A stretch of DNA of 63,315 nt, counting the filler, from Psammoneis japonica (lineage: Eukaryota), in assembly GCA_008632985.1 (NCBI GenBank). It is 6 parts of 6 records of this genome, joined end to end, with 100 filler letters (N's around TTAATTAATTAA, not from the genome) between each part and the next. Parts side by side here need not be neighbours in the genome. Positions count along the whole stretch, not along the records: positions 59,403 to 61,867 come from QPGO01000500.1; positions 61,968 to 63,315 come from QPGO01000515.1; 4 more parts are not named here. The stretch is one strand, 5' to 3'. Position numbers and translations under genes: made by a program. A model generated the notes under the pieces. It made no database searches and was not told where the DNA came from. It saw only the letters and a list, made by a program, of their open reading frames with translations. This document shows positions 30,359-63,315 of this stretch, in pieces. Position 1 is the first letter of the stretch. Every line of letters starts with the position of its first letter.

Positions 30359-30389
30359 CGCCATTGCTGCTGGTGGTGGTGGTGGAGTT

Positions 30390-30684
30390 TCGGGTGTGTC
30401 TTGCCATTCGCGAAGCCGTCTTGGGTTCAAATCATCCAGACACGGCTGCCAGTTACAACAACATTGCTTTGGTTCTCGAACATCAGGGCAAGCACAAGGA
30501 GGCCTTGATGGAGTGTTGCAAGGCACTTGCCATCTTGGGGACAAATCATTCCGACATGGCTTCAAGGTGCAACAACATTGGTGTGGTTCTCAAACATCAA
30601 GGCAAGTTCGAGGAAGCCTTGCTCGAGTTTCAAAAGGCACTTGACATTCATCAGGCCGTCTTGGGTCTAAATCATCCACATTGA
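30390..30684 (+). pseudogene. Kinesin-light-chain-type TPR repeat fragment
   Basis: LAIREAVLGSNHPDTAASYNNIALVLEHQGKHKEAL followed by a second repeat. Confidence 0.85.
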
Positions 30685-38850: not shown

Positions 38851-39169
38851 TGTGTTCAAAATGGATGCCACCCCAATTTCAAGAAGAAAACTTTGCCAAA
38901 AACGTTCTTTTGGCATAAAACGACTTGACAAGAACGTTGGTCCTGTGAGTCAAAGCTGTGCTGGGATGTCTGCCACCACGGTGCGGGAGGTTGGATTGGA
39001 GTGTCAGTCAGGAGCACAACCTTTGTGATTGCAGCAGAGCAATGTGTTGTGAGAGCAACTCCAAAGGTGGTGTCTAAATGCAATGGGAAGTTCGGAGCGT
39101 GACCATCGTCATCATCAATTTCATGGATTTCCTTGTTGTGCAGGTGGAAATTCAATGCCTCCCCACAAA

Positions 39170-40150
39170 TGAATGTTTGTCCAACGCTTTTGCTGTTGTT
39201 TGTTGAACATCGACAATGCCCGCAATTTGCCAATCAATGCCCAAGCTCAATGCATTCTTCCTCCAACTGGGCATTGACTCAATGCCTCCCTTCAAACAAA
39301 CATTTGTCCAATGCTTTTGCTGCAATTTGTTGAAATGCAAAAAACAGCTTTCCGACATCAATGCCCACAAAAACATCAACAATGCCCACAATTTGCCGAT
39401 CAATGCCCAAGCTCAACACATTCTTCCTCTAATTGGGCATTGACTCAACACCACATTAAATGAATGTTTGTCCAATGCTTTTGCTGCAATTTGTTGAATT
39501 GTGAAAAAACAGCTTTCCGACGTCAATGCCCACAAAAACATTGGCAGTGCCCACAATTCGCCAATCAATGCCCAAGCTCAACGCATTCTTCCCATGGCAA
39601 AAGCGTTGGATGAATGTTTGTTCAAAGGGTCCCCAAAGAGAAAAAAGTTCATCAATGTTTGCTTCGTGCGATCGTGGGATGGCGCGGAGAGACTTTTGTC
39701 TGGAGTGCGGATTCGACTCAATGCCTCCCTTCAAACAAACATTTGTCCAATGCTTTTGCTGCAATTTGTTGAAATGCAAAAAACAGCTTTCCGACGTCAA
39801 TGCCCACAAAAACATCAACAATGCCCACAATTTGCCGATCAATGCCCAAGCTCAACACATTCTTCCTCTAATTGGGCATTGACTCAACGCCACATTAAAT
39901 GAATGTTTGTCCAACGCTTTTGCTGCAATTTGTTGAATTGTGAAAAAACAGCTTTCCGACGTCAATGCCCACAAAAACATTGGCAGTGCCCACAATTCGC
40001 CAATCAATGCCCAAGCTCAACGCATTCTTCCCATGGCAAAAGCGTTGGATGAATGTTTGTTCAAAGGGTCCCCAAAGAGAAAAAAGTTCATCAATGTTTG
40101 CTTCGTGCGATCGTGGGATGGCGCGGAGAGACTTTTGTCTGGAGTGCGGA
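39170..40150. repeat. 439-bp tandem duplication built from shorter sub-repeats
   Basis: Near-identical blocks at 39461 and 39900. The atcaatgcccaagctcaa motif recurs at ~39233, 39400, 39565, 39840 and 40005. Confidence 0.9.
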
Positions 40151-40299
40151 TTTGTGTTTTTGGAGTTTGGAGATGACGCACGCCGACACCCATGCTTGGC
40201 CTTGTTTGAGCTGTTCTTCATCATCTTCATTCATGGAGGACACAGACATCACTTTTGGGAGGTCGACGGGTCATGCAAGAGCCTTGGTTTGGAGAGAAA

Positions 40300-42295: not shown

Positions 42296-42319
42296 TCTCT
42301 TCACCCACCTCCAAACCCG

Positions 42320-43173
42320 ACAGGCCATGATGTTTTTGCAAAGCACAAGGATGGCAGTCATGGATGAAGTTGATTGGTTGCTCAACATTCAAAAGTCACG
42401 CGCGGCATCCTCCCAAAAGAAACTGCACGAAAAGCCAGCAGCCATCATCACATCAGCCGTGATTTGACTGACGCTGGGTCAGTGTCAAGTGGTTTGTGTC
42501 AGTGCCACCATGGGTCGGCCGCTGCAATGAGAAGTGGTGCTGGTCTTGGGATTGCCGGCACAAGATTGTCCACAAGTTGTTCCCAGCTCTGTTGAGAATG
42601 TTGTTCTTGCTGTTGGAAAGCTCTTGACGTCGGCATTTCATGTCAAAAAGTTGCTGCCCAAGGATTCATCGAGAATGAACATTGCTGGCATTGACGCGGG
42701 GTTGCGGCGTCAATGCTCAAAACGCCATTGGTGCACTGAGGCATTTTGGCTGCAAACACAATCCACAGTCCTTGTTGGATTTGCTTGAAGTGGATGGAAT
42801 GGACAATGTGATTGAAGTGCATCATCAAGTGTTGGGTGCCACAGGTGTGGGTGACTCACACCTCAACAACAACAATGGACAGTCTGAAGTTGCAGACAGC
42901 AATGATGCCAAGGAGCGTGCATTCGTGATGGAAGAAGATGCCGTTCGGGGATTGCATTTGGATGGGCTCGACATGGTGATTGTTGTGGGACGTCTCAATG
43001 GACCAGATGAGTGCACTCATGTTGCTGGAAGAACAGGATGGGCTGGACGGCGTGGCAAGGTTATTGCTGTGGTTTCAGAAGACAATGCGGCAGCTTTGAA
43101 GTCATGGGAACGCATGCTGAGTGTGAACTTTGAACGGCTTGACATGGACAATGCAGCAACAAGCTTGACGTGA
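42320..43173 (+). pseudogene. DEAD-box RNA helicase, C-terminal fragment
   Basis: VMDEVD (motif II), VSAT (III), VRGLHL (V), ECTHVAGRTGWAGRRG (VI). Confidence 0.8.
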
Positions 43174-43841
43174 AGTTTTAGAAATGACATGAAACAAAAG
43201 TCTTGCTTTGATGTTGGAGCTTTGTTTGCCAGAGAGAGCGTGCGCACCAGCTGACAATCATGCTGACACTGATCCAACACTGTTGAGTTTCAATGATGGC
43301 TGTTTTCAATGCCATGTGTTGCCAGTGGACATGAGTTTTGATCGATGAAGAACAATGCAAGGAGGCAGATGCACCCGTGATGCGACGAACGTGGAGTTGC
43401 AATTCAGTTGCTTTGTGATTGGAAAGTGCTTGAAAAGGAAGGATCCATGTTTGACGCTGGTCCCTGTGTTCGCTCTGCCACACTCTTGAGACAGCTGCAG
43501 CATGACTGTGCCGGCACAGAGTGCAGCCCTCTGGAGCAGGGCTGCAACCACAACTGCACAGAGAGCTTTGGGATGGCAAACGATCCTGACTGGCATGTTG
43601 TGCTGCACTTTCTGCTTGAAGCCAACTGATGACATGCATCCCCTCTGTGCTGTTCAAGACTCACTGACGTCTTGATTGCATTCTCTTCCACCTGATGTCC
43701 AATGCTTCCACGTGTCTAAACAATGATTTGAAAGGCGAGCCTGATTTGTTTCAAAATCGTGACCCAACTTCCAACGGCAGGTTCGGGCACCTCAGCAGCG
43801 TTCTCGGGTTCTTTCCATGGTTTAAAAAATGGCAGAGAATC

Positions 43842-45165
43842 TTAAAGAACGTTCATCAAATGCGTTGATGCATCAAACACTTTCTTTTCCCAATGTTTGG
43901 CCTTCCACTCAATCGCAGAGCAACAGTCAGACAGAATTGGGTCCAGAAACGAGACCTTTTCGAAAAGAAGGTTCGTCTGAGTCTTTGCCAGCGTAGCAAA
44001 GCATGTCGACAACTCCAAAACTCTCTTCCCCCAATGTCCAACACTTGATTTGATCTCAGAGAGATGGTCAGACAAGACTGGGTTCCAAAAAAATGGCAAA
44101 AAATCATCGCGTTCCTGAAGAACGAGTGCCTGAGTTTGGATTTGTGCGATGACGTCATTCGAAAGTGCGTCTGCAAGTTTCCACCAAAGCTGAAACGCTT
44201 CCAACTTGACATCCAAAAAGACAGACTAGATCTCCAAAAATGTCGTGAACGTGTCTTGGAACGGGACTGACTTGGTCTCAGCCATGCTGTCGGGAGCAGT
44301 GTGGTGAAAGAGTTGCTGGAGGCTGCCGTTGGAGTCACCATTGTTGTCCTGAACAAAACATTCATGGACACAATGCTCGTTGTCATCTTCTGCTGGTGCA
44401 ATCGTGGGCGTGGCATTGTGCAGGAGGTCTTGGACGCAACTCGGAGACTTGTCGCCGTCGTCAAAACAAACACAAAAGCTGGAAATGATGATGGCGTTTT
44501 CGAAGGGAATGGTGCTGGGAGCGGCATTGGAGATGACAGCACGGCAGCAGCTGGAGGCAGTGTCGATGTCTGAGCAACTGGTGTTGTCCAAAAACTTGCG
44601 CAGGAGCTCTTGGCTGATCGTGGTGACACTGTCGGTTGCCGTGGCGGCCTTGATCGAAAAGGTGCTAACGGAGCGCTTTGCCGCATCAACAAACAAGGCA
44701 GGACGCGTTCCAGCCCCAGGTGGGACTCTGTGTGACATTGGGCCCGTAGAATTCTACGTGCGAGCTCCGCAGTGCGAGAATTTAATTGATGGATGCATTT
44801 GTCTTCAACATCAAATAAACGGCCAAGTTTGTGGCACAATTGTGCCTCTTGCCACTCGACGTTTTTGCAAGTGCGCCTGCCCCACGCGATTCTTAAGACA
44901 TCATAGAATCGCGCTGTAACAAAAAATGTCAAAAGTTGTTGGACGGATCGCTCAACAAGTGTGCCGTAAAATGACACAAAACATCGAAAAAATCACGTAG
45001 AAATCTACGTGCACGACACACGACGTGATTCAAAAAACTGTCAATGTCACAGTTCAGCAGTGCGAGGTCCCACCTAGACCTGGAACGTGTCGCAGAGAGA
45101 GGACTGATGATGGCACCAGTGCCCATGGCGGCAATGATGGCAAGGACAAAGTTCATGATTTTCAT
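43842..45165 (-). pseudogene. Putative secreted protein interrupted by a MITE
   Basis: Removing 44702-45091 plus one TSD restores the in-frame signal-peptide-like MKIMNFVLAIIAAMGTGAIISPLSALFVDA. One internal stop remains at ~44226. Confidence 0.5.
44702..45091 (+). mobile_element. MITE family A (390 bp), TSD GCAG
   Basis: Imperfect ~25-bp TIRs GAC(G/A)CGTTCCAG....AGGTGGGAC. GCAG at 44698-44701 and 45092-45095. Internal palindromes cgtagaattctacg and cacgtagaaatctacgtg. Confidence 0.9.
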
Positions 45166-46029
45166 GATGGACTGTGAACTGACGAGCAATTCAGAAATTG
45201 TGAGAGCACTCGAACGAGAAGAGATTCTGTCTGCAATGGAGGCACCGTGGTGCAAGACATGTGGAAATCTACATGGCATGGGCCGTTTCCCAGCTGCATT
45301 GAAGTTCGAAGAAAGTTTTTCGACAGTTGTTTTGGCGGAGTTGGTGCGTGCATTGATCTCAGCCGATCGTTCCATTCCACACAGCCTGCTCCACGCACAC
45401 GCACACCACGCACACGCATCACGGCATCATCGATCATCGGCATCGCAACTCGCAACGCATCATGGCACCAAACACCGCATGAACTTGGTGGTGGCCAGCA
45501 TGACGAGCAACGGGAGCGGGACAGTGCAAATGAAGAGAATGTGTCTCGTCCAATGCCACCAAGATTTGTCGTGTCAAAGTTTGTGTGATGGCGACAACTT
45601 TCGTCAGACTTGCAGTGTTTGTTTTGGAAAGCGCCATCTTTTTTGGTTTGCCACACACTGCTTTCTGATGAGACACCCTCTTTGCACATCAGTCTCTCAT
45701 CATTCAGCCCAACAAAACTCTTGAGCATGCAATGGAGGGCCATGCGATCCAACAACTGTCAATGGAAAATGTGCTTCAAGATGCTTGCAACAGATCTCAT
45801 CTGCATCTTCCACCACGCGCATGTGGTGCTGAGGCAATGCTGCTTTGTTCTCTGGATCAATGGACTTTGGATTTGATGTGGGGTTCATTTTTGCTTGTTG
45901 TTGACTTTTTGTTGCTCATGAGTTAGAAAAAATGGGATTGAATCTTTTAAAGAGATGATTGACAAACGAGAAGAAAGCTTGCAGGAGCGAAGAATGCCTG
46001 CCACCACAAACCACCACGTGCTCAAATCT

Positions 46030-47820
46030 GCTTGATGATTGGTGGACAGATTGTCACTTCATCAAAGGCCTTGGCAATCATTCCTTCCAAGGCCTTGGTG
46101 TTGGCAATTCCAGATTCCATCAAGGCATTGGCGACTCATGTTTCATGTCGGGAACTTGCGCCATCTGCTCAGTCTCCGTTCGAGGTGCATCTTCTCATGT
46201 GGGCACTTGTGATTGCTCTTGCCTTGCTTGTCAGAACTGTTTGGTGTCAAAATGTGCCCAGCAACACTGAAGGAAAGGCTCAACATGCTCTTCACGATGG
46301 TGACAAGGTGGCATGGATCAAAGACGCAACCAAAGACAATGACATCCTGACCAAAGCATGATTTTTGCTCTCGCTGATTTGTGTTTTCTGTGATGTTGGT
46401 TTGTTGGCCTTCCTCATTTGGTGCCATGCCACTGCTCCTGCCACAACAAGTTGTTTTGTTGGATCCTCAATTCCCAGTTGCGGCTCAGTGGCTGTTGCGG
46501 CATGACCTTCTGGCGAGCTGGTGTTTGCACCATCTAAAGCCACAATGACAGTTCCTTCAAAGGCTTTGGTTGTTCCTTCCAAGGTGGTTGCTCCATTCAC
46601 CCTGGACTCTTGCAAGGCTTTGGAAATTCATGTTCCGTCATGGAAGTGTTTGACATCGAAAGCCTTGGCAATGGTTTCAAGTGTGGGACTTTCAACATTG
46701 GATGCATTCACGGCCTGTGTTCTCCCATTCAGATGAGACTTGCACCTGAGGATGCCATGGTGGCTCATGTTCCGAGTCAAGAGACTGCAATGTTGGTGGC
46801 TTTTTCATTTGCTTGAGGGCCTCTGGCATGGATGCTTGCCACAGTTGGGCCTGCCTCAATTCAAGCCATGATCAAACAGCGCAGAAACAATGAGGAAGAA
46901 CCCAAACCAATTGTGAAGTGGTGGCCAGTGTTCTTCTCTCTTGTCCTCTTTGTTCTCTGCATCATGATGACTGGTTTCTGTTGCTTGCACTCTTTGCCTT
47001 GAACAATGAATGAATCTGTCTTCTGACTGCCTTCATGTTCCCAGTTGATGGCATTGGTGATTCGCCCTCTTGGTGCATTGATGCTTGCGCCATCCAAGAA
47101 CTTGACCGTCATTCCTTCCAAGGCATTGGCATTGGCATTTCTGGATTCCAGCAAGGCATTGGTGATTCAAGTCTCTGATTGGAGTCACAACGCCGCTGAG
47201 TCTGTGTCAGAAGCCACAGCAGTTCATGTTCCACGTCGGGAAATCGTTTTGTCTGTTCAGTCTCCTTTCAAGGTGCATCTTCTGACATGGGCACTTGTGG
47301 TTGTGCTTGCCTTGATTGTTGGAGTCATCTGGAATCAAACTGTGCCCAATGATCAACGTGTTCTTCATGATGGGGACGTGGGTTGCAGCTGCTGTGGACC
47401 AAAGATGCCAAGAAAGACAAAGAAATGAAACTCCAAGCACAACTTTTGCTCTTGTTAATTTGTCTTTTCCGTCTTGTTGGTTTGTCGGGTCTCCTCATCT
47501 GGTGCCATTCCTCTTCTCCTGCATTTGTGAGCGATTTGGCTGGCTTGCTGCCATGTCACTCAGGATTGGCTGCATTGGTGATTCGTCCCATTGGCGAGTT
47601 TCAATGATTGCTCCATCAAAATCTTTTGTGACCACACCATCCCAAATTGGCATGGTTGCCCCTTCCAAAGCACTGGTGCCAAGCACTCTGAATGGTTGCA
47701 AGGCCTTGACGATGCATGTCCAGCTTTTGAAACTGGCGTTGTCAAAGGCCTTGGCGGTTGTTGCATGTTGGGACCTTGCAGTGCTGGAGGCAGTCACAAC
47801 TTGCACCCCAACTTGAAAGT
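46030..47820 (+). repeat. Degenerate coding-like repeat units
   Basis: IPSKAL..LDSxKAL..HV-type motifs recur near 46060, 46530, 47100 and 47650. QSPFxVHLLxWALV plus a hydrophobic segment occurs twice. Confidence 0.5.
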
Positions 47821-50800
47821 TTGTTGCATCGAATGACAACGTGCTTCATGTTCCAAGTCGAGGTGTTGTGCTGTTGATGGCCTCTCCATGTGGCTTTGAG
47901 GGCTCATTTTTTTTTCTTGCAATGATGGGGCTTTTTTGGATTTTACTTCAAAACTGCATGGGTTCTTTGATGACAGCAAAGAACCTTTTCCAAATCCTTG
48001 CTCTCTTGCCCGAGATGCATTTTGTCAGCAAGACCGGATCCCACCCCCTCTGACATCACACCTCTGGATCATCTGATTCCACCTCAAATCCTGGCCCCTC
48101 TTGTGTTCAAGACAATGACATCTTTCCACCGCAAGATGCTCCGGTTCCTGTTGAAGACCCAGTCCTTCCCCTTCAGCTCTGGTTCCTCCACAAGATCCAG
48201 TCCCTCCCCTTCAAGGCATGGACAATCCTCCTCCAACCCCTCCTCAATTCCTGTGCCAAGTCGCCAATGATGAACGACGAGTGCTGCAGCATTCTCCCCA
48301 TCTCAGCAGTGCTGCAGGAAGCATTTGCCTCTGCTCTGAGAATGTCAGATTTGTTTGTCAATCTGCAAGGCTGGCATGCCAAGCATGCTTTTGCATTCTT
48401 GTTTGTGCTTTTGTGTTTTCTGCACCAAATCATTGCATTGTCATCTTTTGCTCAGCTTTTGTTGCTTTGTGTGCTTTCAATGCATTGCATCTGAGTGTTC
48501 TGCACAGTCGTTGTTGTTCTCTTGACTTTGTTGTGTTCAGTGTTTGCCGGTTCCTCGTGTTTGTTTTGAATTTGCTGGTGGTGGAGTTGCATTGTTTTGT
48601 GCTGCTTTGTTGTTGAACCCACGCAGTTTGTCAACTCTCGTCACTGTTGCGTTGCTTCATGTGCGCATGTGGGTTCCAGTTTTTTGTTTTAATTTGAGAA
48701 GTTGTGGTGCTTTGTCATTTGCATCAACGTTTGTTGATGCTGTCATTGTTTTTGCTGCTGTCATTTTAGTGCCATGTGTCACAAAACTGTTGTCATCTTT
48801 TTGTTTGTTCTGGTTTGTTTTGCTGTTTGCCATTGTTTGCTCAAGTCCATTTTTGCTTCATTTCATTGTTGGCGATGTTCTTGTTGCTTGATCATGGCAC
48901 TGTGTTTGCGCTTTTGTCATTGCACTTGTTTTGTTTTGCTTTGAACTGCATTGTCTTGCAGGCTTCAAGCATTTTTCTTGGCTGCTCAACCCCCCCCCCT
49001 GTCAGTGTCACTGCTTTGGTGAGATGACATCTTGCTCGACTGGCTTTCGAAAGGCAGCACCAAAGGCGCGCGCTCATGTTCACATGCTTGTGTGCTTGTG
49101 CTTCTTTCTCCTTTTGCCACTTGCATTCACAAGACTGTCGTGGCCTCCACCGCCACAAGTTCATCCTCAAGACCTGGCCCTTCTTGTTGTCCATCATCAT
49201 GCCCTGTGTCCATTTTGCCACTTGAATTGCCTTCAATTCTGTCTCCTCCAAATTGTCTGTTTGGTCTCCATGTCACCCCCAAATCATTGGCATTTCATGC
49301 AACCCACCCCACCACCTCCAACCTCACTTCATTTGTGTCTCCACCCTTTTGAACTTCCCCCCATCTGTTGACACATCACCACCTCGTCCACGTTGTCTGA
49401 CTCGTCACCTCAGCACCTCCAAATTGTTCGTTTGTGTGCAATGCAATCCACCCGCCTCCTCCAACACCTCCAGTTCATCATTTCCATTTGTTTCTCCACC
49501 ACCTCCAACTTCCCTCCATCTCACAACATGTCACTCCCTTCACAATGTTGGATTCGTTGCCGCCACATCTCCAAACCATTCCCTCGCATGCCACGCAATC
49601 CACCCTGCCGCCTGCAATGTCGTCAGCTCGTCTTCCATGCTTTGTTCCATCTCCCTTTGCTTCCATCTCCACCACCTTCAAATTCCTCCGTGACTCCCTC
49701 CACAGTGTTGGATTCAGGCCACAACACCTCCAGATTGTTCATTTGCGCAATTGCGTGCCACGAGCAATCTGCCCTGCTGCCTCCAATGCCTCCAGTTTGT
49801 CTTGTTCGCCCTGTCCTTCATTTCCGTCTCCTCCACCTCAAATGCCTTTGTTTGTCTCACCTCTCCTGTGTTGCCATCCAAACCACTGACTCTGTCTGCC
49901 CGCGGTTTGGGTTTTGCTTCACAGCGATGCTCAAGGTGAGCACAGTGTGCTTTTGTGCTTTCATTGCCTTGGCATTTCTTCACTTGTTTTGCCAATCCTT
50001 GCTGTTGATTTGGTTTGGAGAGTGATCTTTTTTCAAATTGATTGCACTCCAAACCATCCCCCCCCCCCCCCCAAAAAAAAACAAAGAGATCTCCTTCCCT
50101 TGTTCGAATTGGGCCGGAGCAGTCATGCCGATGCACAAGGGTGAGCAACAGCGGGCCCACCCCGCAACTTGTGTTTTTCAAACAAAGTGTGGACCAGGAG
50201 TGTCATTGGCGTGTGGCTGTGCAACTTTGGTTGCTCTTGAAAGCCTGTGCCTCACCTTTTGCACCAGTGCATTGACGAGCTTTTGNNNNNNNNNNNNNNN
50301 NNNNNNNNNNNNNNNNNNNNNNNNNNNNNTTAATTAATTAANNNNNNNNNNNNNNNNNNNNNNNNNNNNNNNNNNNNNNNNNNNNGTTCTGAGTGGTTGT
50401 GAGTCTTTGCGCTTCCTGAGGTCGCTGGCTCGAATCGGCCTCAAATCCAAGCCTCCTTTTCTTTCTCGGCCTGCCCCTTTCCAACCCCATCCGGGGTGGG
50501 CGGCTGGGCTTCGAACCCACTCCTCCCTTGGCCAGATGCACCACATGGCACCAACCCATCCTGCCTGACAGAGGGAGTGCATGGTCAAATTTGCAAGTCC
50601 GCTGTGCAGATGCACCACATGGCAACAACCCAGAGTTGGACAAATGCTGTGCGATGATGCTGTGCACAACACACGCATCAGAGTGCACGAACGTTAAAAA
50701 TGTGTGGATTTGCATGATGGCAATTTGTCAAAATGTTGCAGAAAAATTGTTGTCACACAATGACAGGCCAACCTCTGGTTGCAAGTTTGCTGTGCCAATG

Positions 50801-51613
50801 TCACGACAACTTGTTGAGAATCATGTGCGCCATTTTTCACTGTGCCCACATCGCCATTTCTGCCTCCACCTTGTTGCCATGTGCCAATCCATGATTGCAT
50901 TGCCGCACAATCCTTGGTTTGTCAATTTTTGCAAACAGGGGTGTGATCACAGAACCACTTGCATGCCTGCTTGTTCCTTGTTTGCTGCCAGCGACAGTGT
51001 CTGGGCCAAGCGGATCCCATGTCGGCACAATCGGGATGTCTTTCTTTTCGTTCTTGTCACGGCTTGACTTTTTCCTGCCTTGCTTTTTCCTCTTGACTGC
51101 CGCCTTGAGTTTCTTTTCTTTTTCCTTTCCCTCTTCCTTGGCAACAACGCCTGCACAGACAAAGCATCACCGTCATCTTCTTGCGAGATGCGCGCAACTC
51201 TCGAGTCACACACATTGGTCACCCAACTTGCGGGCCATTGCCTCCACCCCAACAGCCGAACACACCGTGTTTCTGAGATTGTCAACTTGCCTTTTTGCCG
51301 CCTCTTTTGCCCATTCCTCCCAAGTTCCTGACCAATTTGAAGTGTCCATGTTGCCACCAGCAATCTGTTTCTTGACAAACATTGAGATGCTCCCATTGCT
51401 TGCCAGTTCTGATGGACTGAGAAACTTCACCTGTGAAAAGAGATCATTTCCAGCCACCTTCTCCACTTCTGGTTTCAGCGCACCATGCGCTGCCTGCACG
51501 CCCATTCTCTTCAACACTGCCTGAAGTCTCAGGCTCATTGGCTCAACAGTCTCATTTTTCTTTCTCTTCTTTGCCGGTGGTGCTGGAGACGACATCTTGA
51601 TCTTTTCACAGCA

Positions 51614-51874
51614 GGCCTGTTCCAGCTCCAGGTGCTCCGCGCGGGTTCGATTCCCATCATTTGGAAATTTGTGCATTTGGCGCAATTGACTTTTTCCAAA
51701 TCCGTTTTTTGGCAAATCAAAGGGTGAGTGTGCACTTTGCATGCATTTTTGGGTGTACACTCACCTTTCGATTTTCGAAACGATCAAAAATTGAAGGAGT
51801 CAATTGCGCCAAACTGCGCAGAAAATCGGCCTCTCGCGTGATGAAAAGCAGAGCACCTGGAGCTGGAACAGGCC
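51614..51874. mobile_element. MITE family B (261 bp), TSD AGCA
   Basis: Perfect 24-bp TIR GGCCTGTTCCAGCTCCAGGTGCTC. AGCA on both sides. Internal IR ttggcgcaattgact/agtcaattgcgccaa. Confidence 0.9.
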
Positions 51875-53152
51875 AGCAACAATGAGAGGAGCATTGCTGT
51901 TCGACAGTGCAGCCGTCATTTGGGTCGTGTTGAGACAGCCAGCCACTCCATTTTTCTCCACAACGTTGAACAAATTGTTGTCAGCAACCACGCTGCTGCA
52001 GTGCATCCTTGCTCCAAAGAGTGCGCACCAATGAGGAATGTCCCCATTTGCGTGGCTGCTGCCATGTGGGTTGATCCAGCCAATGGACAGCCGCGCCCAC
52101 TGCCAGCCCACAAGGCTGTGTTTTTCAGGGAAAGAATGACTGACACCCCTGCTGTGCCCCAGCCAACTGTGAGCAAGTGAGCTGACTGTCCACGACACCC
52201 CTCGCCAGTTTGACCCCAACAGCGCGCACTCTGTTGTTTTCCCTGACTTGAAAATCAGGGTGCTTTTGCGCGCGCAAGGTGAGTTGAGTGCCAGAGCGGG
52301 ACTTGGGCCTGTCTGCAGAGAAGACTTCAATGTCAAGGTCAAACAAACATGTCTTGAAAACAAACATGTCGTTTCAAGGAAAACAAACATGTCGCTTCAA
52401 GGGAAAAAAAATGTCTTTTCAAGGAAAACAAATGCGGCGTTTCAAGGAAAACAAACATGTGGTTTCAATGAAAACAACCATGTCTTTTCTGGGAAAACAA
52501 GTGTGGCGTTTCAAGGAAAACAAACATGTCTTTTCAAGGAAAACAAACATTTCGTTTCAAGGAAAACAAACATGTCTTTTCAAGGAAAACAAACGTGTCG
52601 TTTCAAGGAAAACAAACATGTCTTTTCAACGAAAACAAACGTGTCATTTCAAAGAAAACAAACATGTGGTTTCAAGGAATGCAAACATGTCTTTTCAAGG
52701 AAAACAAACATGTCTTTTCAAGGAAAACAAATGTGTCATTTCAAGAAAAACAATCGCGTCGTTTCAAGGAAAACAAACATGTCTTTTCAGGGAAAACAAA
52801 CATGTCTTTTCGGTGAAAACAAACATGTCGTTTCAAGGAAAACAAACATGTCTTGAAAACAAAACATGTCTTTTCAAGGAAAACAAACATGTCATTTCAA
52901 GGAAAACAAACATGTCGTTTCAAGGGGGAAAATGGATGTCTTTTCAAGGACAACAAACGTGTCGTTTCAAGGAAAACAAACATGTGTTTTCAAGGAAAAC
53001 GTTAGATTGGACATTGGATGTTTGCCGCTCGAGACAGCACAGAGCCAACAGAGACAAAATTTGCCAGGGGCCGCACTCAAGATGGCGCCTGCCACTCAAG
53101 ACTGGATGTTGGGCACTCGAGACACTGCAGTTCACCACTTGAGATGATGACA

Positions 53153-53542
53153 GACGCGCCCCAGGTCCAGGTGGGACCTCGCACTGCTGAACTGTGACAT
53201 CGACAGTTTTTTGAATCACGTCGCATGTTGCGCACGCAGATTTCTGCGTGATTTTTTTGACATTTTTTGTCATTTTATGGTGCATTCATTGAGCGATCCA
53301 TCCAACAACTTTTGACATTTTTTGTTGCAGCGCGATTCTACAATGTCTTGAGAGTCGCGCAGGGCAGGTGCACCTGCAAAAACGTCGAGTGGCAAGAGGC
53401 ACAATTGCACCACAAACTTGGCAGCTCATTTGATGTTGAAGACAAACACACCCATTGGTCAAATTCTTGCACTGCGGAGCTCGCACGCAGAATTCTGTGG
53501 GCCCAATGTCACACGGAGTCCCATCCAGGACTGGAGCCCATC
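53153..53542 (-). mobile_element. MITE family A copy, inverted and more mutated
   Basis: Reverse complement aligns full length to 44702-45091. TSD is not intact. Confidence 0.85.
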
Positions 53543-53624
53543 GTTTTCAAGTGAAACAAATGTGTGGTTTCAAGGAAAACAAACATGCAAACAAACATGT
53601 GGCTTCAAGGAAAACAAACATGTC

Positions 53625-54010
53625 AACGGGTTCCAGCCCCAGGTGGGACTTTTTGTGACATTTGCCCCGTGGAATTCTGCGAGCTCTGCAGTTCGCACTC
53701 TGGTTGATGGACACATTTGTCTTCAACATGAAAAAAACGACCAAGTTTGTGGCACATCTGTCCATGCAGGTGCTCGAAGTTTTGGACAACATGCATGCCC
53801 TGCACCATTCTCAAGACACTCGAGAATGGCACAGAAGAAAAAAAATGTCAAAAGTTGGTCAATGCATGGCCTGACAATTGCACTGCAAAATCACACAAAA
53901 TTTTGCCACAATCACGTAGAAATGTGCGTGCGCGACATGCGACGTGATTCAAAAAACTGTCAATGTCACAGTTCAGCAGTGCGAGGTCCCACCTGGACCT
54001 GGAACGTGTC
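53625..54010 (+). mobile_element. MITE family A copy inserted in a satellite unit, TSD TGTC
   Basis: aaaca-TGTC-[element]-TGTC-gtttcaagg restores one satellite monomer. Confidence 0.9.
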
Positions 54011-54208
54011 TGTCGTTTCAAGGAAAACAAACATGTCTTTTAATGGAAAACAAACATGTCATTTCAAGGAAAACAAACACGTCTTTTCAAGGAAAACAAA
54101 CGTGTTGTTTCAAGGAAAACAAACATGTCTTTTCACAGAAAACAAACATGTCATTTCAAGGAAAACAAACCTGTGGTTTCAAAAAAAACAAACATGCCTT
54201 TTCAAGGA

Positions 54209-54398
54209 GCGAGAATGGCGCAGAAGAAAAAAATGTCAAAAGTTGATCAATGCATGGCCTGACAATTGCGCTGTAAAATCACACAAAATTTTGCCACAGT
54301 CGCGCAGAAATGTGCGTGCACGACACACGACGCGATTCAAAAAACTGTCGATGTCACAGTTCAGCAGTGTGAGGTCCCACCCAGACCTGGAACGCGTC
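54209..54398 (+). mobile_element. 3' half of MITE family A, co-duplicated with the satellite
   Basis: Matches 53820-54010, including the TGTC right flank. Confidence 0.85.
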
Positions 54399-55589
54399 TG
54401 TCGTTTCAAGGAAAACAAATGTGTGTTTTCAAGGAAAACAAACATGTCATTTCAAGGAAAACAAACACGCCATTTCAAGGAAAACAAACATGTTGTTTCA
54501 AGGAAAACAAATGTGTCTTTTCAAGGAAAACAAACATGTCGTTTCAAGGAAATCAAACATGTCTTTTCAATGAAAACAAACATGTCGTTTCAAGGAAAAC
54601 AAACGTGTGGTTTCAAAGAAAACAAACATGTCTTTTCAAGGAAAACAAGCATTTTGTTTCAAAGAAAACAAACATGTCTTTTCAATGAAAACAAACATGT
54701 CGTTTCAAGGAAAACAAACATGTCATTTCAAGGAAAACAAACATGTGGTTTCAAGGAAAACAAACATGTCGTTTCAAGAAAAACAAACATGCCATTTCAA
54801 GGAAAACAAACATGTTGTTTCAAGGAAAACAAATTTGTCTTTTCAAGGAAAACAAACATGTCATTTCAAGGAAAACAAACATGTCGTTTCAAGAAAATCA
54901 AACATGTCGTTTCAAGGAAAACAAACATGTGGTTTCAAAGAAAACAAACATGTCTTTTCAAGGAAAACAAACATGTCTTTTCAAGGAAAACAAACATTTC
55001 GTTTCAAAGAAAACAAACATGTCTTTTCAATGAAAACAAACATGTCGTTTCAAGGAAAACAAGCGTGTCATTTCAAGGAAAACACACATGTGGTTTCAAG
55101 GAAAACAAACATGTCGTTTCAAGGAAAACAAACATGCCATTTCAGAGAAAACAAACATGTTGTTTCAAGGAAAACAAGTGTGTCTTTTCAAGGAAAACAA
55201 ACATGTCGTTTCAAGGAAAACAAACATGTTGTTTCAAGGAAAACAAACATGTCGTTTCAAAGAAAACAAACATGTCTTTTCAAGGAAAACAAACATGTCT
55301 TTTCAAGGAAAACAAACATTTCGTTTGAAAGAAAACAAACATGTCTTTTTAATGAAAACAAACGTGTCGTTTCAAGGAAAACAAACGTGTCATTTTAAGG
55401 AAAACAAACATGTGGTTTCAAGGAAAACAAACATGTCTTTTCAAGGAAAACAAACATGTCGTTTCAAGGAAAACAAACACGTCGTTTCAAAGAAAACAAA
55501 CACGCCATTTCAAGGAAAACAATCATGTTGTTTCAAGGAAAACAAATGTGTGTTTTCAAGGAAAACAAACATGTCGTTTCAAGGAAAAC

Positions 55590-56234
55590 NNNNNNNNNNN
55601 NNNNNNNNNNNNNNNNNNNNNNNNNNNNNNNNNNNNNNNNNNNNNNNNNNNNNNNNNNNNNNNNNNNNNNNNNNNNNNNNNNNNNNNNNNNNNNNNNNNN
55701 NNNNNNNNNNNNNNNNNNNNNNNNNNNNNNNNNNNNNNNNNNNNNNNNNNNNNNNNNNNNNNNNNNNNNNNNNNNNNNNNNNNNNNNNNNNNNNNNNNNN
55801 NNNNNNNNNNNNNNNNNNNNNNNNNNNNNNNNNNNNNNNNNNNNNNNNNNNNNNNNNNNNNNNNNNNNNNNNNNNNNNNNNNNNNNNNNNNNNNNNNNNN
55901 NNNNNNNNNNNNNNNNNNNNNNNNNNNNNNNNNNNNNNNNNNNNNNNNNNNNNNNNNNNNNNNNNNNNNNNNNNNNNNNNNNNNNNNNNNNNNNNNNNNN
56001 NNNNNNNNNNNNNNNNNNNNNNNNNNNNNNNNNNNNNNNNNNNNNNNNNNNNNNNNNNNNNNNNNNNNNNNNNNNNNNNNNNNNNNNNNNNNNNNNNNNN
56101 NNNNNNNNNNNNNNNNNNNNNNNNNNNNNNNNNNNNNNNNNNNNNNNNNNNNNNNNNNNNNNNNNNNNNNNNNNNNNNNNNNNNNNNNNNNNNNNNNNNN
56201 NNNNNNNNNNNNNNNNNNNNNNNNNNNNNNNNNN
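55590..56234. other. Assembly gap within the satellite
   Basis: Run of N. Confidence 0.99.
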
Positions 56235-56784
56235 GAAAACAAACATGTCTTTTCAAGGAAAACAAACATTTTGTTTCAAAGAAAACAAATGTGTCTTTTC
56301 CATGAAAACAAACATGTCGTTTCAAGGAAAACAAACATGTCATTTCAAGGAAAACAAACACGTGGTTTCAAGGAAAACAAACATGTCGTTTCAAGAAAAA
56401 CAAACATGCCATTTCAAGGAAAACAAACATGTTGTTTCAAGGAAAACAAATGTGTCTTTTCAAGGAAAACAAACATGTCGTTTCAAGAAAATCAAACATG
56501 TCGTTTCAAAGAAAACAAACATGTTGTTTCAAGGAAAACAAACATGTGGTTTCAAAGAAAACAAACATGTCTTTTCAAGGAAAACAAACATGTCTTTTCA
56601 AGGAAAACAAACATTTCGTTTCAAAGAAAACAAACATGTCTTTTCAATGAAAACAAACATGTCGTTTCAAGGAAAACAAGCGTGNNNNNNNNNNNNNNNN
56701 NNNNNNNNNNNNNNNNNNNNNNNNNNNNTTAATTAATTAANNNNNNNNNNNNNNNNNNNNNNNNNNNNNNNNNNNNNNNNNNNN

Positions 56785-58375
56785 CGATTTCCGAGTGTCG
56801 ACTGCAGCCACTCCCCTTTTTGCATCCAGCAGCAGTCCATGCAGATCTGAACAAAGCCACTTTTCTTAAAATCAATCACTGTTCCAAACCGCGTCTTGAC
56901 CCTTTGGGCAAAATTCTTGGCGGACATGTTGCAATTCAAGTGACAAGCGGGGCTGCCATCCTGCAGGGACACAGTGCATGCACGAACATTTGAGTTCGTG
57001 TGGAGATCCTGAACGACTTGACACCTTGCCTCATCTCTTCTTTGCTGAGTGGATCGGACAGCCTCCACGCCACGGTCCGAACATCTCATCTAATGTCAGG
57101 TTTCCGGCCATGACGGGCCTCGTCATGCAAAGCCACAGGACATTTGCACCTCCGTCTTGTCTGGGGATGACATGACAATGTGAAACAAAAGCACAGGAGG
57201 AGTCATGTTGCGGGTTGAGATTTGTGAAAAACATGACACCAAACAATTGCAGGAGTTCTTCGGCTGTTGACAGACTTGCACTCAAAAATGGCATTCACAT
57301 GTTTGTCCATGTCAAAATCTTGCACTTGTAAAAGGACCGGTGGCTCGGGTCGATCGTACGCGGTTGCATTGCTTGTGTCATCTTCATCGGATTCTTGATC
57401 CTGCGACTGAAGGACAACAGAATCTGCTGTGACAATTGGAACGCGGCAGTCAGAATCAGGACACGAGCAGTCCTCCGACAACACAGACTCCTCCAAAGAC
57501 AATGAGCTGAGTTCATTGTCTGCNNNNNNNNNNNNNNNNNNNNNNNNNNNNNNNNNNNNNNNNNNNNNNNNNNNNNNNNNNNNNNNNNNNNNNNNNNNNN
57601 NNNNNNNNNNNNNNNNNNNNNNNNNNNNNNNNNNNNGCAGACAATGAACTCAGCTCATTGTCTTTGGAGGAGTCTGTGTTGTCGGAGGACTGCTCGTGTC
57701 CTGATTCTGACTGCCGCGTTCCAATTGTCACGGTAGATTCTGTTGTCCTTCAGTCGCAGGATCAAGAATCCGATGAAGATGACACAAGTAATGCAACCGC
57801 GTACGATCGACCCGAGCCACCGGTCCTTTTACAAGTGCAAGATTTTGACATGGACAAACATGTGAATGCCATTTTTGAGCAAGTCTGTCAACAGCCGAAG
57901 AACTCCTGCAATTGTTTGGTGTCATGTTTTTCACAAATCTCAACCCGCAACATGACTCCTCCTGTGCTTTTGTTTCACATTGTCATGTCATCCCCAGACA
58001 AGACGGAGGTGCAAATGTCCTGTGGCTTTGCATGACGAGGCCCGTCATGGCCGGAAACCTGACATTGGATGAGACATGTTCGGACCGTGGCGTGGAGGCT
58101 GTCCGATCCACTCAGCAAAGAAGAGATGAGGCAAGGTGTCAAGTCGTTCAGGATCTCCACACGAACTCAAATGTTCGTGCATGCACTGTGTCCCTGCAGG
58201 ATGGCAGCCCCGCTTGTCACTTGAATTGCAACATGTCCGCCAAGAATTTTGCCCAAAGGGTCAAGACGCGGTTTGGAACAGTGATTGATTTTAAGAAAAG
58301 TGGCTTTGTTCAGATCTGCATGGACTGCTGCTGGATGCAAAAAGGGGAGTGGCTGCAGTCGACACTCGGAAATTG
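56785..58375. repeat. ~740-bp near-identical inverted duplication around a gap
   Basis: 56785-57523 is the reverse complement of 57638-58375, with a few substitutions and two 2-bp indels. Confidence 0.9.
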
Positions 58376-59452
58376 CTTCTTTGGCAAGAACCCAAGGGAT
58401 GTGATGGAAACGTTGTTTCATCCAAAGCTCCAGAGGTGCCGCATCATAATCCCGTGCACCATTTGGTCACTGACCCAAACCGTGCGCAATTTGGATGACA
58501 TTTTGGAGTGCGCACTGGTGCAGGCCATGACACAGGACATGGCACATGAAACAGTGACGCTCCCAGGCTTCCCAGGAGATTGGAGGAGCACGTGTGGATT
58601 GGCTGGGAAAACCATCTGACCAGGAAGCATTGCATTTGGGAGTCACGGAACAGGAAATTTGGGAAACGCTGCCACATGAAGAAGCCAATTCAGTCCTGGA
58701 GTTCCTGCGAGAGTGTGGAAATTACAACCCGAAGGAACCATTCCCGTTCCTGTCCTTCGACAGGAGAATTCCCGATTTTAGGGATGAGTTAAGGAAATGG
58801 CCTGGAGTTGTTTGCTGTGCTAGTTCCCAGTCGGATTTGTGAGTGATTGTCAAAGCAGGTGAGTGAACGTTGTCTCTGTTGTCCTTGTCGTCCCAATTAA
58901 GTTTTCTGCTGCTGTTGTCGGATGCTCACATGCTTTTCACCTGCTTTTGTGAAACAGCTCTCCCCATGCATTTCTGTGGTCTTGAACTGCCCAAACATGC
59001 TTTGTCCTGTCGTGTGTCTCAGCAATGCCGGTTGCTCCTCATGCACAACAATTTGTCGCCAACAGCGTCGATGGGCACCAAGAAAAGCTTGGGTGAGCAC
59101 ACTGTTTGTTCAGCAGAGGACAAGTTGTTGTTCTTCACTTGGTCCAATTGCCAGCGACTGACCAGGTCGGTGTGTTGCATTCGTTCAACCATGGTGCGCT
59201 TGTCAGGCTGGCACGTGCAAGGGTGAACGACCGCATGCAAGTCACCGTCGCTTTCCCTTTGGAAGAAACAGTGAAGTCTTGACGGGAAGCACAATTCCCC
59301 CCNNNNNNNNNNNNNNNNNNNNNNNNNNNNNNNNNNNNNNNNNNNNTTAATTAATTAANNNNNNNNNNNNNNNNNNNNNNNNNNNNNNNNNNNNNNNNNN
59401 NNAGATGCTCCATTGCAATCCTGCATCTGTGCGGCACGCAGGACCTTGTCAA

Positions 59453-61860
59453 TTAGACCGGGTTGAGTGAGTAGAAATCGACCCTCGGAGAGCTTTTCGA
59501 TCTTGATCCGAGAAAGTGCCCGACTTCTCCTTCGTCTCTAAGTTCAAATGCGTGGCGATGTTCGTCGTCGGAGACTCCTGACTTGCGAATTTCGGCTTCT
59601 AGAGCTTCAGCTGAAGCTCCAGCAAAAACGGTGTCGTCGACGTGCACCACACACATCATGCCCTCTTTGAAATACAAACAGGGATCTGTGGCTGAAGGTG
59701 CCCATCCGCGCTCGGTTAAACCAGCTCGTAACTTCTCGCAGAAGCCCTTGGGAGACTGTTTTAGGCCGCACAGTCCTTTCAAAAGTTTGAGAACCACATT
59801 GAGTCCCGACCTTGGCGCAAATCCCTTCGGCGGTGTCGCACAAACTTCCTCGGCGACATCAGCTTGGCAAAAGGCTGTGGTGCAGTCCACCTGTCGTGCA
59901 GTCCATCCCTCCTTTAACACCGCAGTGAGCATGAGTCGGACACTGGACCATTGCACAACCGGCGCGCAGGTTTCGAAGTGGTCGACTCCTTCTTTCTGCA
60001 AATCACCGCGGACGCAGTGTCGGGCCTTATACTTGAGAGGGGTTCCATCTGGGAGTCTCTTGAGCTTTAGTGCCCATGTGCCTGGAAGCACATTCATGTG
60101 CAGCTGACGCTCGACTGCTTTCCAGGCTCGACGATGTGTGAGTGCGTTGACTTCAATTTTCATCGCCTCAATCCATTCGTCGGCGTCCGGACCTTTCAGA
60201 GCATTGTGCAACGAAGGCACATCAGGGTCCTTGGTTTTCTTGCTAGCTGCGTAGGCTCGTGGATCGCTGACATTGATGGCACCACTGTCCAAATCCGTCT
60301 CGAGAGTCGCCAGATACGCCAGTTGAGCCTCGTGTCCGATCGGTGGCGGCATTTCCTCGACGGAGCTGAAGTGGACCTCATCTACAAACTTGGCAGAGTT
60401 GAACTGTCCCTTGGTTGACCGTGAAGACCGTCGCAGCCCTGGCACTCCCTCTGGATTCGTCAGAGGAGGTGTCTCGACTGGGGGAGGAGCTGTTGGTTCC
60501 GTCGGTGCTTCGGGTGGCAGAAGTCCATCACCATCTTGAGGTTCAGGTGGCTGAATTGGCGCAGAGTCCATAGAGTCTGTAGGAGTTTGAGTCACAGGTG
60601 GGACTGGTGGCGTTGGCTGCTGAGTCGTAGGTGCGACTCGATCGGTGACGTCGTCGCGAGAAATGGGTGAATCCGGCGCAGCAATCGATGGAGCAGGCTC
60701 AAAATGCCCGCGAATGCGTGTTGCTCTGGCTAGTTCTCGTTCTTTACGTTGACGCTCTGGAGGGGTAAGCCACTCATCGTGTAAATGAACTGCCTGATCC
60801 TTCTCCAGAGGGATGCACATCGATTGGTTGAGGCACAAGTGTTCCCAGTGATCAGGTGGATCCGTCTCCCTCTCGATTGATGGCACGGCAGTGAAGAGAT
60901 CGTCAAAGACCACATGACACTGAGGTGCAACACTTCCAGTTTGAAGATTGAGGACCAAAGGAACCTCACTGGAATGGATGGCACTGAGTCCCACGAACAA
61001 AGCGCGACGAGTGCGAGGCTCCCAACGCGGGAGCTTCTTCCCGGAAGCGAGGGTCGGGTCAAGTGCGCACGCTGGACATCCCCATGTGTGAATGTCGCGC
61101 AACCGATGTCTTGGCACTGTCGAACCGGTGAAAATGTCCGCTGGGCAATGTCCTTTGGAATTTGGGGTGACATTGTAGATGTGCGTGGCACAAGAAACTG
61201 CCATGGGCCATAGGGAGCTGTCAATTCCCCCCTTCCAGTGCATTGATGCATGAAGCAACATCGCTCTCGCCATGTTGGAGATGCTGCGGATGCCCCGCTC
61301 TGCGACGCCGTTCTGATGATGGGCGTTGGTTCCACAAAAACGGAGACGTTGTTCATGATCTCGTGTGTGTTGTACAAAAGCGTTGGCCTTGAAAGCGCCA
61401 CTGTCGGTAAGAAATTCTTGGACGATGACCCCGTGGTCCAAAGCATGTTTCTCAAACGCTTGCTTCGCGTGCATCGTCTCAACAGCGGAGAAACCCAGTT
61501 GATGCTCGACCTGGACATGGCCAGAGGCGTGGTCGACAAAGACACAACCGCCCTTGAATTGCTTGGACATGGCTTTGCCATAAGAGTCGAAGGTGCGGCC
61601 GAAAAGGCGCGACTCAAAATGATCAACGCTGACAGCCTGACCCGGTCGAAGATGGTCAGCTCGAAGGGCCCCGTCGCGTTCAGGGACTGTCGACTTGTGA
61701 GTAGATCCAAGAGAGCATCTGTGACCTTAGCATGTTCGCATGCCTCGCATCTTGGGTGGTCCACACTTCGCTGCGGACTTGAAACGGTTCGAAAGGAATG
61801 GAACTGCGCGGAGAAGTGCTTGGACGCAGCCAAAGTTCAAATGGCCAAAACGGGCATGCA
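59453..61860 (-). mobile_element. Ty1/copia LTR retrotransposon pol fragment (GAG-pre-integrase, integrase, RT), inactivated
   Basis: CEACEHAK, VFVDHASG, TDSG, AHHQNGVAER, HVVFDD, KYKARHCVRGD, LCGLKQSP, VVHVDD (catalytic YVDD). Integrase precedes RT. Confidence 0.95.
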
Positions 61861-61967
61861 TTTCGAGNNNNNNNNNNNNNNNNNNNNNNNNNNNNNNNNN
61901 NNNNNNNNNNNTTAATTAATTAANNNNNNNNNNNNNNNNNNNNNNNNNNNNNNNNNNNNNNNNNNNN

Positions 61968-62405
61968 AGCAAATCGAAGCCTTGCCGCTGCAAGCTTCGG
62001 ATGCTCAGAATCCCATGGATGGGGCCACTGATGTTTTCTGTGACAATGAAGCTGTCTTCAAGAACTCAACTGAACCGGAGTCCACTTTGAAGAAGAAGCA
62101 CAATGCAGCTGCCTGTCACAGGACTCGCGAGGCACAAGCCGCTGGAACAGCGCGCATTGCTTGGGAAGACGGGCGCACGAATCTGGCAGACGTGCTGACC
62201 AAGTTGTTGCCTGGACCGAAGCTCCAGGAAATCACAAGTCATGTCCTGTGGTGAGCCCCAAAAGGGGACAAACCAAACGGGTTTGCCGCGCAGGTGCGGC
62301 ACTTCCCACCCCCAAAATGTGGCTGCTGCCCTGGAGTGGGGCAGCGTCAGGTTGCATTTTTCTGTCGATCTGACCCAAGCGGAGCCAGCGTCAGTTCAAG
62401 GGGGC
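61968..62405 (+). mobile_element. Ty1/copia RNase H C-terminus, 3' UTR and possible polypurine tract
   Basis: VFCDNEAV..ESTLKKKHNAAACHRTRE..NLADVLTK, stop at 62254. AAGGGGG followed by CTG at ~62398-62407. Confidence 0.85.
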
Positions 62406-62589
62406 TGAATGAATGCTGATGTGCTGTCACAAACACAGGCAGTTTGTGTGCCATTGGCGATTGGTTCACTGTTGCTCAGTCAGCGGCCCCAGCAGCACAA
62501 CATCCCACAATTCTAGAACCTGTTGATGCTGTTCAACGATCTCTGTCTTGTCTTGCACCCATTCTCAGCTGTCATGGCAGTGTTTGGTC

Positions 62590-63315
62590 AGTTTCAAGGA
62601 AAACAAACATGTGTTTTCAAAGAAAACAAACACGTGGTTTCAAGGAAAACAAACATGTTGTTTCAGGGAAAACAAACATGTCTTTCAAGAAAAAAAACAT
62701 GTCTTTCAGGAAAACAAACATGTTTTTTCAAAGAAAACAAACATGTTCTTTTCAAGGAAAACAAATGTGTCATTTCAGGGAAAACAAACATGTGGTTTCA
62801 GGGAAAACAATCATGTCTTTTCAAGGAAAACAAATGTGCATTTTCAAGAAAAACAAACATGTCATTTCAAAGAAAACAAACATGTCTCTTCAAGGAAAAC
62901 AAATGTGTCATTTCAAGGAAAACAAACATGTGGTTTCAAGGAAAACAAACATGTTGTTTAAAAAAAAAAAACACATGTCATTTCAAGGAAAACAAACATG
63001 AAACAAACGTGTCGTTTCAAGGAAAACAAACGTGTCTTTTCAAGAAAAACAAACATGTCGTTTCAAGGAAAACAAATGTGTCCTTTCAAGGAAAACAAAC
63101 GTGTCCTTTCAGGGAAAACAAACATGTGCTTTCACAAAAAACAAACATGTTTTTTCCAGAAAAACAAACATGTCTTTTCAAGAAAAACAAACATGTTGTT
63201 TCAAAGAAAACAAACATGTCTTTTCAAGGAAAACAACATGTGGTTTCAAGGAAAACAAACATGTGGTTTCAAGGAAACAAACATGTCGTTTCAAGGAATA
63301 AAAACATGTTTTCAA
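62590..63315. repeat. 23-bp satellite array, same family, more diverged
   Basis: TTTCAAGGAAAACAAACATGT units continue to the window end. Confidence 0.95.

Follow-up and report, generated by a model that had tools for sequence, protein, structure and literature searches.

A repeat-rich domain of at least 54 kb in the genome of Psammoneis japonica has lost nearly all of its TA dinucleotides, with a matching gain of CA and TG, and the TA steps that survive in it are sorted by their flanking bases. The domain lies in a stretch of 63,315 nucleotides of assembly GCA_008632985.1, hereafter the window. Among A:T>G:C changes the loss is limited to TA, and it continued after segments of the domain had been duplicated as DNA. 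From these observations we infer the attacked base of the pair and the enzyme: we give an even chance to a deaminase that acts on the adenine of 5'-T-A-Y(-Y) (Y, pyrimidine; R, purine), on either DNA strand, in place within a silenced repeat-rich domain. The phenomenon is real and of a kind described once before; the flank rule is a new detail.

The window consists of six parts joined end to end, and parts side by side are not necessarily neighbours in the genome. The five joints are 100 bases long, each with a 12-base six-frame stop linker between two blocks of 44 N. Because the linkers carry artificial TTAA sites, they were masked in all TA counts. Satellites, linkers and one TA-rich island were masked for dinucleotide rates and observed-to-expected ratios (o/e), which compare the flank with the depleted part; linkers and the island were masked for counts of surviving NTAN sites in the depleted part. 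The sequencing data came from one sample in three runs (X1, X2 and X3); the paralogous contigs used below are from X1 and X2, and X3 supplied none.

Positions 9100..63315, unstranded: TA-depleted, CA/TG-enriched, CpG-poor, repeat-rich domain, reaching the window end
Positions 1..9000, unstranded: flank of ordinary composition, used as baseline; TA o/e 0.59, CG o/e 1.04, 365 TAs
Positions 23414-23513, 50286-50385, 56685-56784, 59303-59402 and 61868-61967: joints, each adding three artificial TTAA sites

TA is depleted across a sharply bounded domain

The domain begins at ~9.1 kb, at a boundary sharp to about 100 bp. From 9001 to the end the TA o/e was 0.07 and the CG o/e 0.56, and the CA/TG o/e rose from 1.13 in the flank to 1.63. 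In 1.5-kb windows the TA o/e ranged from 0.01 to 0.24 in the domain, compared with 0.49-0.70 in 1-9000, and the lowest windows reached 0.01-0.02. Expressed per kb, TA dropped ninefold from 40.6 to 4.5 and CG dropped from 58.7 to 34.6; CA and TG both climbed from 70.3 to 101.8. The dinucleotide books therefore balance: the losses of TA (-36.1 per kb) and CG (-24.1 per kb) match the combined gain of CA and TG (+63 per kb).

The other A- and T-containing steps moved little. Comparing flank and domain, we found AA/TT steady at 80.0 versus 80.3 per kb and AG/CT at 60.0 versus 58.6, which shows that the A:T>G:C change is limited to TA. AC/GT was nearly constant as well, and AT changed slightly, from 61.7 to 55.6 per kb. 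The GC dinucleotide rose from 57.5 to 71.6 per kb, a rise predicted by TAC>TGC. The differences between TG and CA on one strand were small (skew size at most 0.17) and alike in the normal flank, and we claim no strand asymmetry.

The sequence-only reading of this DNA had offered, as an alternative to a DNA adenine deaminase, repair-coupled polymerase eta acting on methylated DNA, for which a raised AA to AG change was the check. The unchanged AA/TT and AG/CT rates do not bear out the polymerase: A>G is found at TA and is not raised at AA, the other half of the WA signature (W, A or T). Windows that had lost more TA had also lost more CpG (Spearman 0.72, n=25), which no more than suggests action on methylated DNA, and CpG decayed more slowly than TA in the same DNA. 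CpG survival by 5' base was 0.50 for ACG, 0.55 for TCG, 0.59 for CCG and 0.76 for GCG. A dual A-and-C deaminase working at TCG was considered as the source of the CpG loss and was ruled out, since survival is not TCG-specific.

The depletion also reshaped the reading frames. TAA fell from 9.0 to 1.9 per kb and TAG from 8.9 to 1.3, and because these two stop triplets are nearly gone, long open reading frames (ORFs) are in surplus: 49 of the 57 ORFs of at least 180 aa lie wholly within 9001-63315, in all six frames.

Surviving TA steps follow a flank rule

The earlier reading had proposed that the mutator has a sequence context, turning TAY into TGY (equivalently RTA into RCA), and that YTAR tends to survive. 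Survival followed this expectation. The 220 TAs remaining in the domain comprised 111 YTAR, 93 YTAY/RTAR and 16 RTAY, compared with 67, 189 and 109 in the flank (chi2 81.8, p=1.7e-18). Relative to the 9-kb flank, per-base survival was 0.29 for YTAR, 0.086 for YTAY/RTAR and 0.026 for RTAY. The middle value matches the geometric mean, 0.087, of the two outer ones, as two independent strand events would predict if either one is enough to destroy a TA. A local claim held too: between 9.3 and 12.8 kb no RTAY had been seen, and positions 9300-12770 contain 15 TAs, 7 of them YTAR, 8 one-sided and none RTAY.

Tabulating loss over the 16 NTAN contexts led to a clear rejection of equal loss (chi2 203, 15 df). 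A per-strand fit with four parameters reduced the misfit to chi2 21.2 on 12 df and gave survivals, by the base 3' of A, of 0.62 for A, 0.45 for G, 0.22 for C and 0.09 for T. The next base contributed as well, with survival of 0.013-0.03 for TAYY and 0.27 for TARA. The rule recurred in four separate segments, was weaker in the contig that holds a copia element, and was still significant when a baseline internal to the domain was used (chi2 48.9, p=2e-11).

A dose-response gives the best reason to read the rule as one of rates, not of ancestry. With falling TA o/e, the YTAR share of survivors went through 0.18, 0.27, 0.45, 0.60 and 0.61, and the RTAY share through 0.30, 0.23, 0.08, 0.01 and 0.04. 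As depletion deepens, TAs with a 3' T vanish first and those with a 3' C next.

Direction of change in paralogous copies and in composition

Run X1 contains exact copies of deeply depleted stretches, at depth 30-41, which speaks against an assembly error; X1 may be the assembly's own source. It also contains many paralogous contigs with 90-99% identity to the domain. Between these and the window there were 474 transitions and 91 transversions. The 40 differences listed, a small sample of 633, were classified and included 16 sites with TA in the paralogue and TG or CA in the window, 3 CA-versus-TG sites, 11 CpG transitions, 4 other transitions and 3 transversions. With TA taken as ancestral, the edited A was followed by a pyrimidine in 13 of these 16 sites (p=0.034 against an expectation of 0.56).

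Composition points the same way. On the assumption that CpG decays equally to TG and CA, 75% of the lost YTAY reappears as YTGY and not as YCAY (block bootstrap confidence interval 0.53-1.07; P(0.5 or less)=0.012). For tetranucleotide products the fitted model gave only a weak correlation (r=0.50, p=0.051), and an even split gave r=0.36. Taken together, the paralogue sites and the YTGY balance lend moderate support to the proposed direction, TAY to TGY and RTA to RCA; the copia codons from which it had first been drawn do not show it by themselves.

Tyrosine codons in the copia elements

Positions 59453..61726, minus strand: Ty1/copia integrase-reverse transcriptase ORF, 757 aa; RVT_2 match E=1.3e-26, no stop
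Positions 61727..61867, minus strand: GAG-pre-integrase fragment of the same copia in a different frame; aligned to 32 homologues, 14 conserved columns identical; ended by a joint
Positions 61970..62251, plus strand: C-terminal fragment of a second, more diverged copia, recognised by alignment to homologues; GCC TGT at 62111-62116
Positions 59642..59644, minus strand: CAC (His) as the opening codon of the reverse transcriptase Y-x-D-D box, here H-V-D-D

The element was assigned to Ty1/copia from an integrase ahead of an RVT_2-type reverse transcriptase, together with the GAG-pre-integrase domain. Its homologues carry PF13976 and PF07727, and the nearest is a protein of the diatom Fragilaria with 57% identity. 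The contig, in which no long terminal repeats were seen because joints cut it, has a TA o/e of 0.24 and a CG o/e of 0.93.

Compared with 45 homologues, the ORF differs at 59 of the 365 columns conserved at 70% or more. The unambiguous single-step changes (n=34) included 13 A>G and 5 T>C, of which 14 of 18 were at TA: 10 of the 13 A>G lay at T-A, with a pyrimidine next in 13 of 13, and 4 of the 5 T>C lay at T-A. In the 18 columns that Tyr leads with a share of at least 50%, the window has 4 Tyr, 6 Cys, 2 His, 4 Phe, 1 Trp and 1 Val. The catalytic box is one such case, since column 695 is Tyr in 36 of 38 homologues and the window reads GTG CAC GTC GAC GAC; the GCC TGT of the second fragment stands in a column that is Tyr in 19 of 21 homologues.

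The preceding base did not significantly predict the direction in these codons. With the second fragment included, Tyr-majority columns gave 8 TGY versus 2 CAY (p=0.11), divided into 5 TGY and 1 CAY after a pyrimidine and 3 TGY and 1 CAY after a purine (Fisher p=1.0). Columns with Tyr at 15% or more gave 6 TGY and 3 CAY after a pyrimidine and 4 TGY and 3 CAY after a purine (Fisher p=1.0). The 5 TGY among 6 pyrimidine-preceded codons reject the mirror model, where the deciding feature would be a purine at the second base 5' of the A (p=0.005).

The codons listed by the sequence-only reading therefore need sorting. ACC TGC, GAC TGC, GTT TGT, TCT TGT, GTG CAC and GCC TGT do stand in Tyr-majority columns; TTC TGC, GAC CAC and CGA CAC stand in columns of mixed Phe and Tyr, and AAA CAT in a column without Tyr in 35 homologues. 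The list had also omitted the purine-preceded GCG TGC, CTG TGC, CAG TGT and ATG TGC and the pyrimidine-preceded GGC CAT and GTC CAC. That evidence is too thin and was selectively listed, and a role of the preceding base in setting the direction does not follow from copia alone.

Duplicates diverged at TA-type sites after duplication

Positions 56787-57523 and 57637-58373, unstranded: inverted duplicate with 737-bp arms, 98.9% identical, around a 113-N gap
Positions 52356-53000, 54011-55589, 56235-56679 and 62591-63315: 23-bp satellite arrays, 77-86% matches
Positions 25144-26559, minus strand, and 30301-30681, plus strand: host-like gene fragments (amino-acid transporter, WD40, TPR_10/12)
Positions 12771..13220, unstranded: TA-rich island of 450 bp, 10-16 TAs per 100 bp versus 0-2 on either side, sharp edges

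Tandem and inverted duplicates in the domain differ mainly at TA/TG, TA/CA, CG/TG, CG/CA and CA-versus-TG sites (53 of them CA-versus-TG). Since the copies diverged at TA-type sites, the changes arose on DNA after duplication. Between the arms of the inverted duplicate, the four classified substitutions were 2 TA/TG, 1 TA/CA and 1 CG/TG. That structure (56787-58373) is either a genuine palindrome or a fold-back made in assembly. A separate tandem duplication of 438 bp at 39276-40152 is in perfect register, at 99.3% identity, and its three differences are all at CpG.

The domain contains copia fragments, the 23-bp satellite and multi-copy DNA with paralogues, and most of the domain belongs to no recognisable family; few dispersed repeats besides the satellite were found within the window. 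The satellite is nearly free of TA (o/e about 0.03) despite about 33% GC, and a TA-free unit may simply have been amplified. Its unit variants are mostly CpG-type transitions around a central CATGTC. Fragments of Aa_trans, WD40 and TPR genes also lie inside the domain. At positions 24.2-26.9 kb, multi-copy paralogues of 90-95% identity occur in runs X1 and X2, so the host-like fragments belong to a repeated unit and are not single-copy genes.

The TA-rich island is either a young insertion or unique sequence spared by the process, and it directly precedes a 963-N gap. In the flank, an open ORF of 339 aa (1-1017, plus strand) has relatives at only 41-43% identity, one of them with MIB_HERC2; its nearest Atlas clusters are giant-virus proteins, with scores of 0.84-0.86 that are too weak to trust. 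No Rfam family and no tRNA was found in the window.

Discussion

We propose that a mutational process would act on DNA in place, in a silenced repeat-rich domain, and turn TpA into TpG or CpA. The likeliest chemistry would be deamination of adenine to hypoxanthine in DNA, which would be copied as G. An adenine would be hit when T lies 5' of it, preferably when pyrimidines follow, in two independent strand events; YTAR would then be slow, YTAY and RTAR would be hit on one strand and RTAY on both. By the 3' base, the order of loss would be T-A-T, T-A-C, T-A-G and T-A-A, with T-A-Y-Y lost fastest and T-A-R-A slowest. CpG decay would run in parallel in the same DNA at a slower pace. No stop codon would ever be created, as TAA and TAG would be removed, or TAA turned into TGA; elements would thus be disabled by missense (Tyr to Cys or His) with their frames left open.

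The 5'-T-A-Y model fits the survival classes, the dose-response, the 13 of 16 listed paralogue differences and the product balance. A DNA adenine deaminase, as the earlier reading had suggested, is therefore a reasonable candidate. The deaminases of tRNA work in a comparable context: their target A34 always follows U33, making a U-A step, and bacterial TadA reads U-A-C-G. The T-A-Y rule resembles these contexts; it differs in that TAT is lost here at least as fast as TAC.

Several points weigh against this reading. Survivor counts come out the same for an A with a 3' pyrimidine, an A with a purine two bases 5' and a T that follows a purine. As baseline there is a 9-kb flank of unrelated sequence. 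The direction data are modest: among one-sided sites, 5 of the listed X1 differences fit A-then-pyrimidine and 2 do not, and with copia added 10 of 13 fit (p=0.046). The YTGY balance depends on its assumption of equal CpG decay to TG and CA. In product accounting, the gain of NTGC lies above and that of NTGT below the prediction from fitted rates, which makes the order of TAT and TAC uncertain; that order may owe something to an unsuitable baseline. Old internal repeats have the favoured flank in 14 of 28 TA-versus-TG/CA differences, with no bias; we judged this to be expected if fast sites are exhausted in both copies and, as the comparison is biased by survivorship, used it neither way. No deaminase domain appeared among the 176 ORFs of at least 110 aa scanned in the window. 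Finally, amphioxus ADAT2, the one shown to edit DNA, prefers GAA for adenine and TCG for cytosine (PMC10354150); the first does not match TA, and the CpG loss here is not TCG-specific.

Attack on the thymine is a much less probable alternative, and we regard it as unlikely. The T of 5'-R-T-A would carry a modification, such as a hydroxyl or a sugar, and C would take its place on copying or repair; because the strands are symmetrical, the pattern of survivors and products would be identical, so that sequence cannot separate it from attack on A in T-A-Y. Modified thymines such as 5-hydroxymethyluracil, however, pair mostly with A, we know of no system with a TA-only T>C spectrum, and no thymine-modifying gene was seen among the scanned window ORFs.

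A methyl-directed route is improbable. Here an adenine methyltransferase would mark T-A-Y in silenced DNA, and N6-methyladenine would turn into hypoxanthine, as an adenine counterpart of 5-methylcytosine decay. The joint variation of TA and CpG losses is what two marks of one silent chromatin state would give, and the flank preference could be that of a methyltransferase. However, known eukaryotic N6-methyladenine lies at ApT and not at TpA, while AT barely moves in the domain, and the route needs a rate several times that of CpG decay in the same DNA; the copia contig has a TA o/e of 0.24 with CG still at 0.93.

We also think it improbable that error-prone repair synthesis places G opposite T at TA steps, through polymerase eta (WA) or an iota-like enzyme recruited to methylated or damaged repeats. 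Polymerase eta does give A>G at WA, and mismatch repair could be drawn to the decaying CpGs nearby. However, AA/TT and AG/CT are static, so that the W of WA is strictly T, the copia A>G changes fall at T-A in 10 of 13 cases, and TA survival of 0.026-0.29 is near saturation, which is unlikely to come from patch repair.

RNA editing of double-stranded transposon RNA by an ADAR-like enzyme, followed by reverse transcription into the genome, is very unlikely. The element first flagged is a retrotransposon, and ADARs prefer a 5' U; ADAR hyper-editing likewise produces clusters of A>G in repeats. However, a 5' A is acceptable to ADARs too, and on the 3' side they favour G, whereas here AA is untouched and a 3' T or C is favoured over G and A, the opposite 3' preference. 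The changes are moreover on DNA: tandem and inverted duplicates diverged after duplication, gene fragments are depleted too, the 23-bp satellites are almost free of TA, and the domain is continuous with sharp edges.

There is hardly any case for doing without a context-dependent mutator and invoking selection, an artefact of sequencing or assembly, or the composition that the inserted DNA had from the start. The baseline is indeed short and unrelated, and the run supporting the assembly may be its own source. However, a TA o/e of 0.01-0.1 lies well under every natural genome signature we know of. Paralogues retain TA at sites that are TG or CA in the window, Cys or His replaces Tyr in conserved columns, the mix of survivor classes changes step by step as depletion deepens, and the internal baseline upholds the rule. 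New TAs arising from the CA/TG pool would be ~24% YTAR and ~24% RTAY, compared with the observed 50% and 7%.

The closest known system is that of Bigelowiella natans. Our literature search for TpA-loss systems in transposons returned only papers on repeat-induced point mutation (RIP) and one 2026 preprint, by Mettrop et al. (bioRxiv 10.64898/2026.01.13.699255), the sole report of hypermutation that strikes foreign DNA at TpA only. In the mutation-accumulation lines described there, 231 of 302 nuclear mutations fell in two viral insertions, 230 of these 231 were A>G or T>C and were placed on TpA, the mutation rate was raised about 1000-fold in living lines, and an ADAT2 homologue was proposed as the candidate enzyme (10.64898/2026.01.13.699255). 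In both organisms A:T>G:C is limited to TpA, with TpG or CpA as product. A further likeness lies in the enrichment for reverse-transcriptase and transposase sequences there and the copia reverse transcriptase here. The low-TpA coding sequences of B. natans have a mean TpA frequency of 0.0018 (10.64898/2026.01.13.699255), similar to the roughly 1.5 per kb of our most depleted windows. When the preprint's thresholds were applied to the 37 1.5-kb windows from 9001 on, 29 passed both and 36 passed the TpA threshold. The systems differ in that the depleted tract here is at least 54 kb long and CpG decays here in addition, whereas G:C>A:T was almost absent there, with a single mutation of the 231 outside A>G and T>C. 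Flanking context has no place in the preprint's main text, where none of the words context, flanking, trinucleotide or tetranucleotide is used (10.64898/2026.01.13.699255). P. japonica is probably a second organism with TpA-targeted hypermutation, beside B. natans.

RIP in fungi offers a broader parallel, with dinucleotide-specific transitions limited to repeated or foreign DNA, sharp edges and a possible role in genome defence. Its chemistry runs the other way. RIP changes C:G to T:A at CpA, raises TpA, makes DNA AT-rich and creates stops; here TpA is depleted in favour of CpA and TpG, GC dinucleotides go up, and TAA and TAG go down.

The flank rule (T-A-Y(-Y) fast, T-A-R-A slow, strands independent) provides a direct test for candidate enzymes and can be checked against published de novo mutations. 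It argues against signatures of the polymerase-eta and ADAR types, and it does not match the sole ADAT2 of known DNA context. For annotation, domains poor in TAA and TAG fill with long spurious ORFs in six frames, which gene finders would over-call, and elements inside them look intact despite altered key residues, such as Y-V-D-D turned into H-V-D-D. A natural A:T>G:C editor of chromosomal DNA, if true, would be relevant to research on genome defence and base editing. As a tentative proposal, to which we give somewhat less than an even chance, P. japonica, an organism distinct from B. natans, may possess a natural adenine deaminase of chromosomal DNA that is aimed at silenced repeats and reads 5'-T-A-Y-Y on each strand independently. 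It would amount to a RIP-like defence of opposite chemistry that works by missense without stops, and the flank rule would be its fingerprint, which should recur among the de novo mutations of B. natans.

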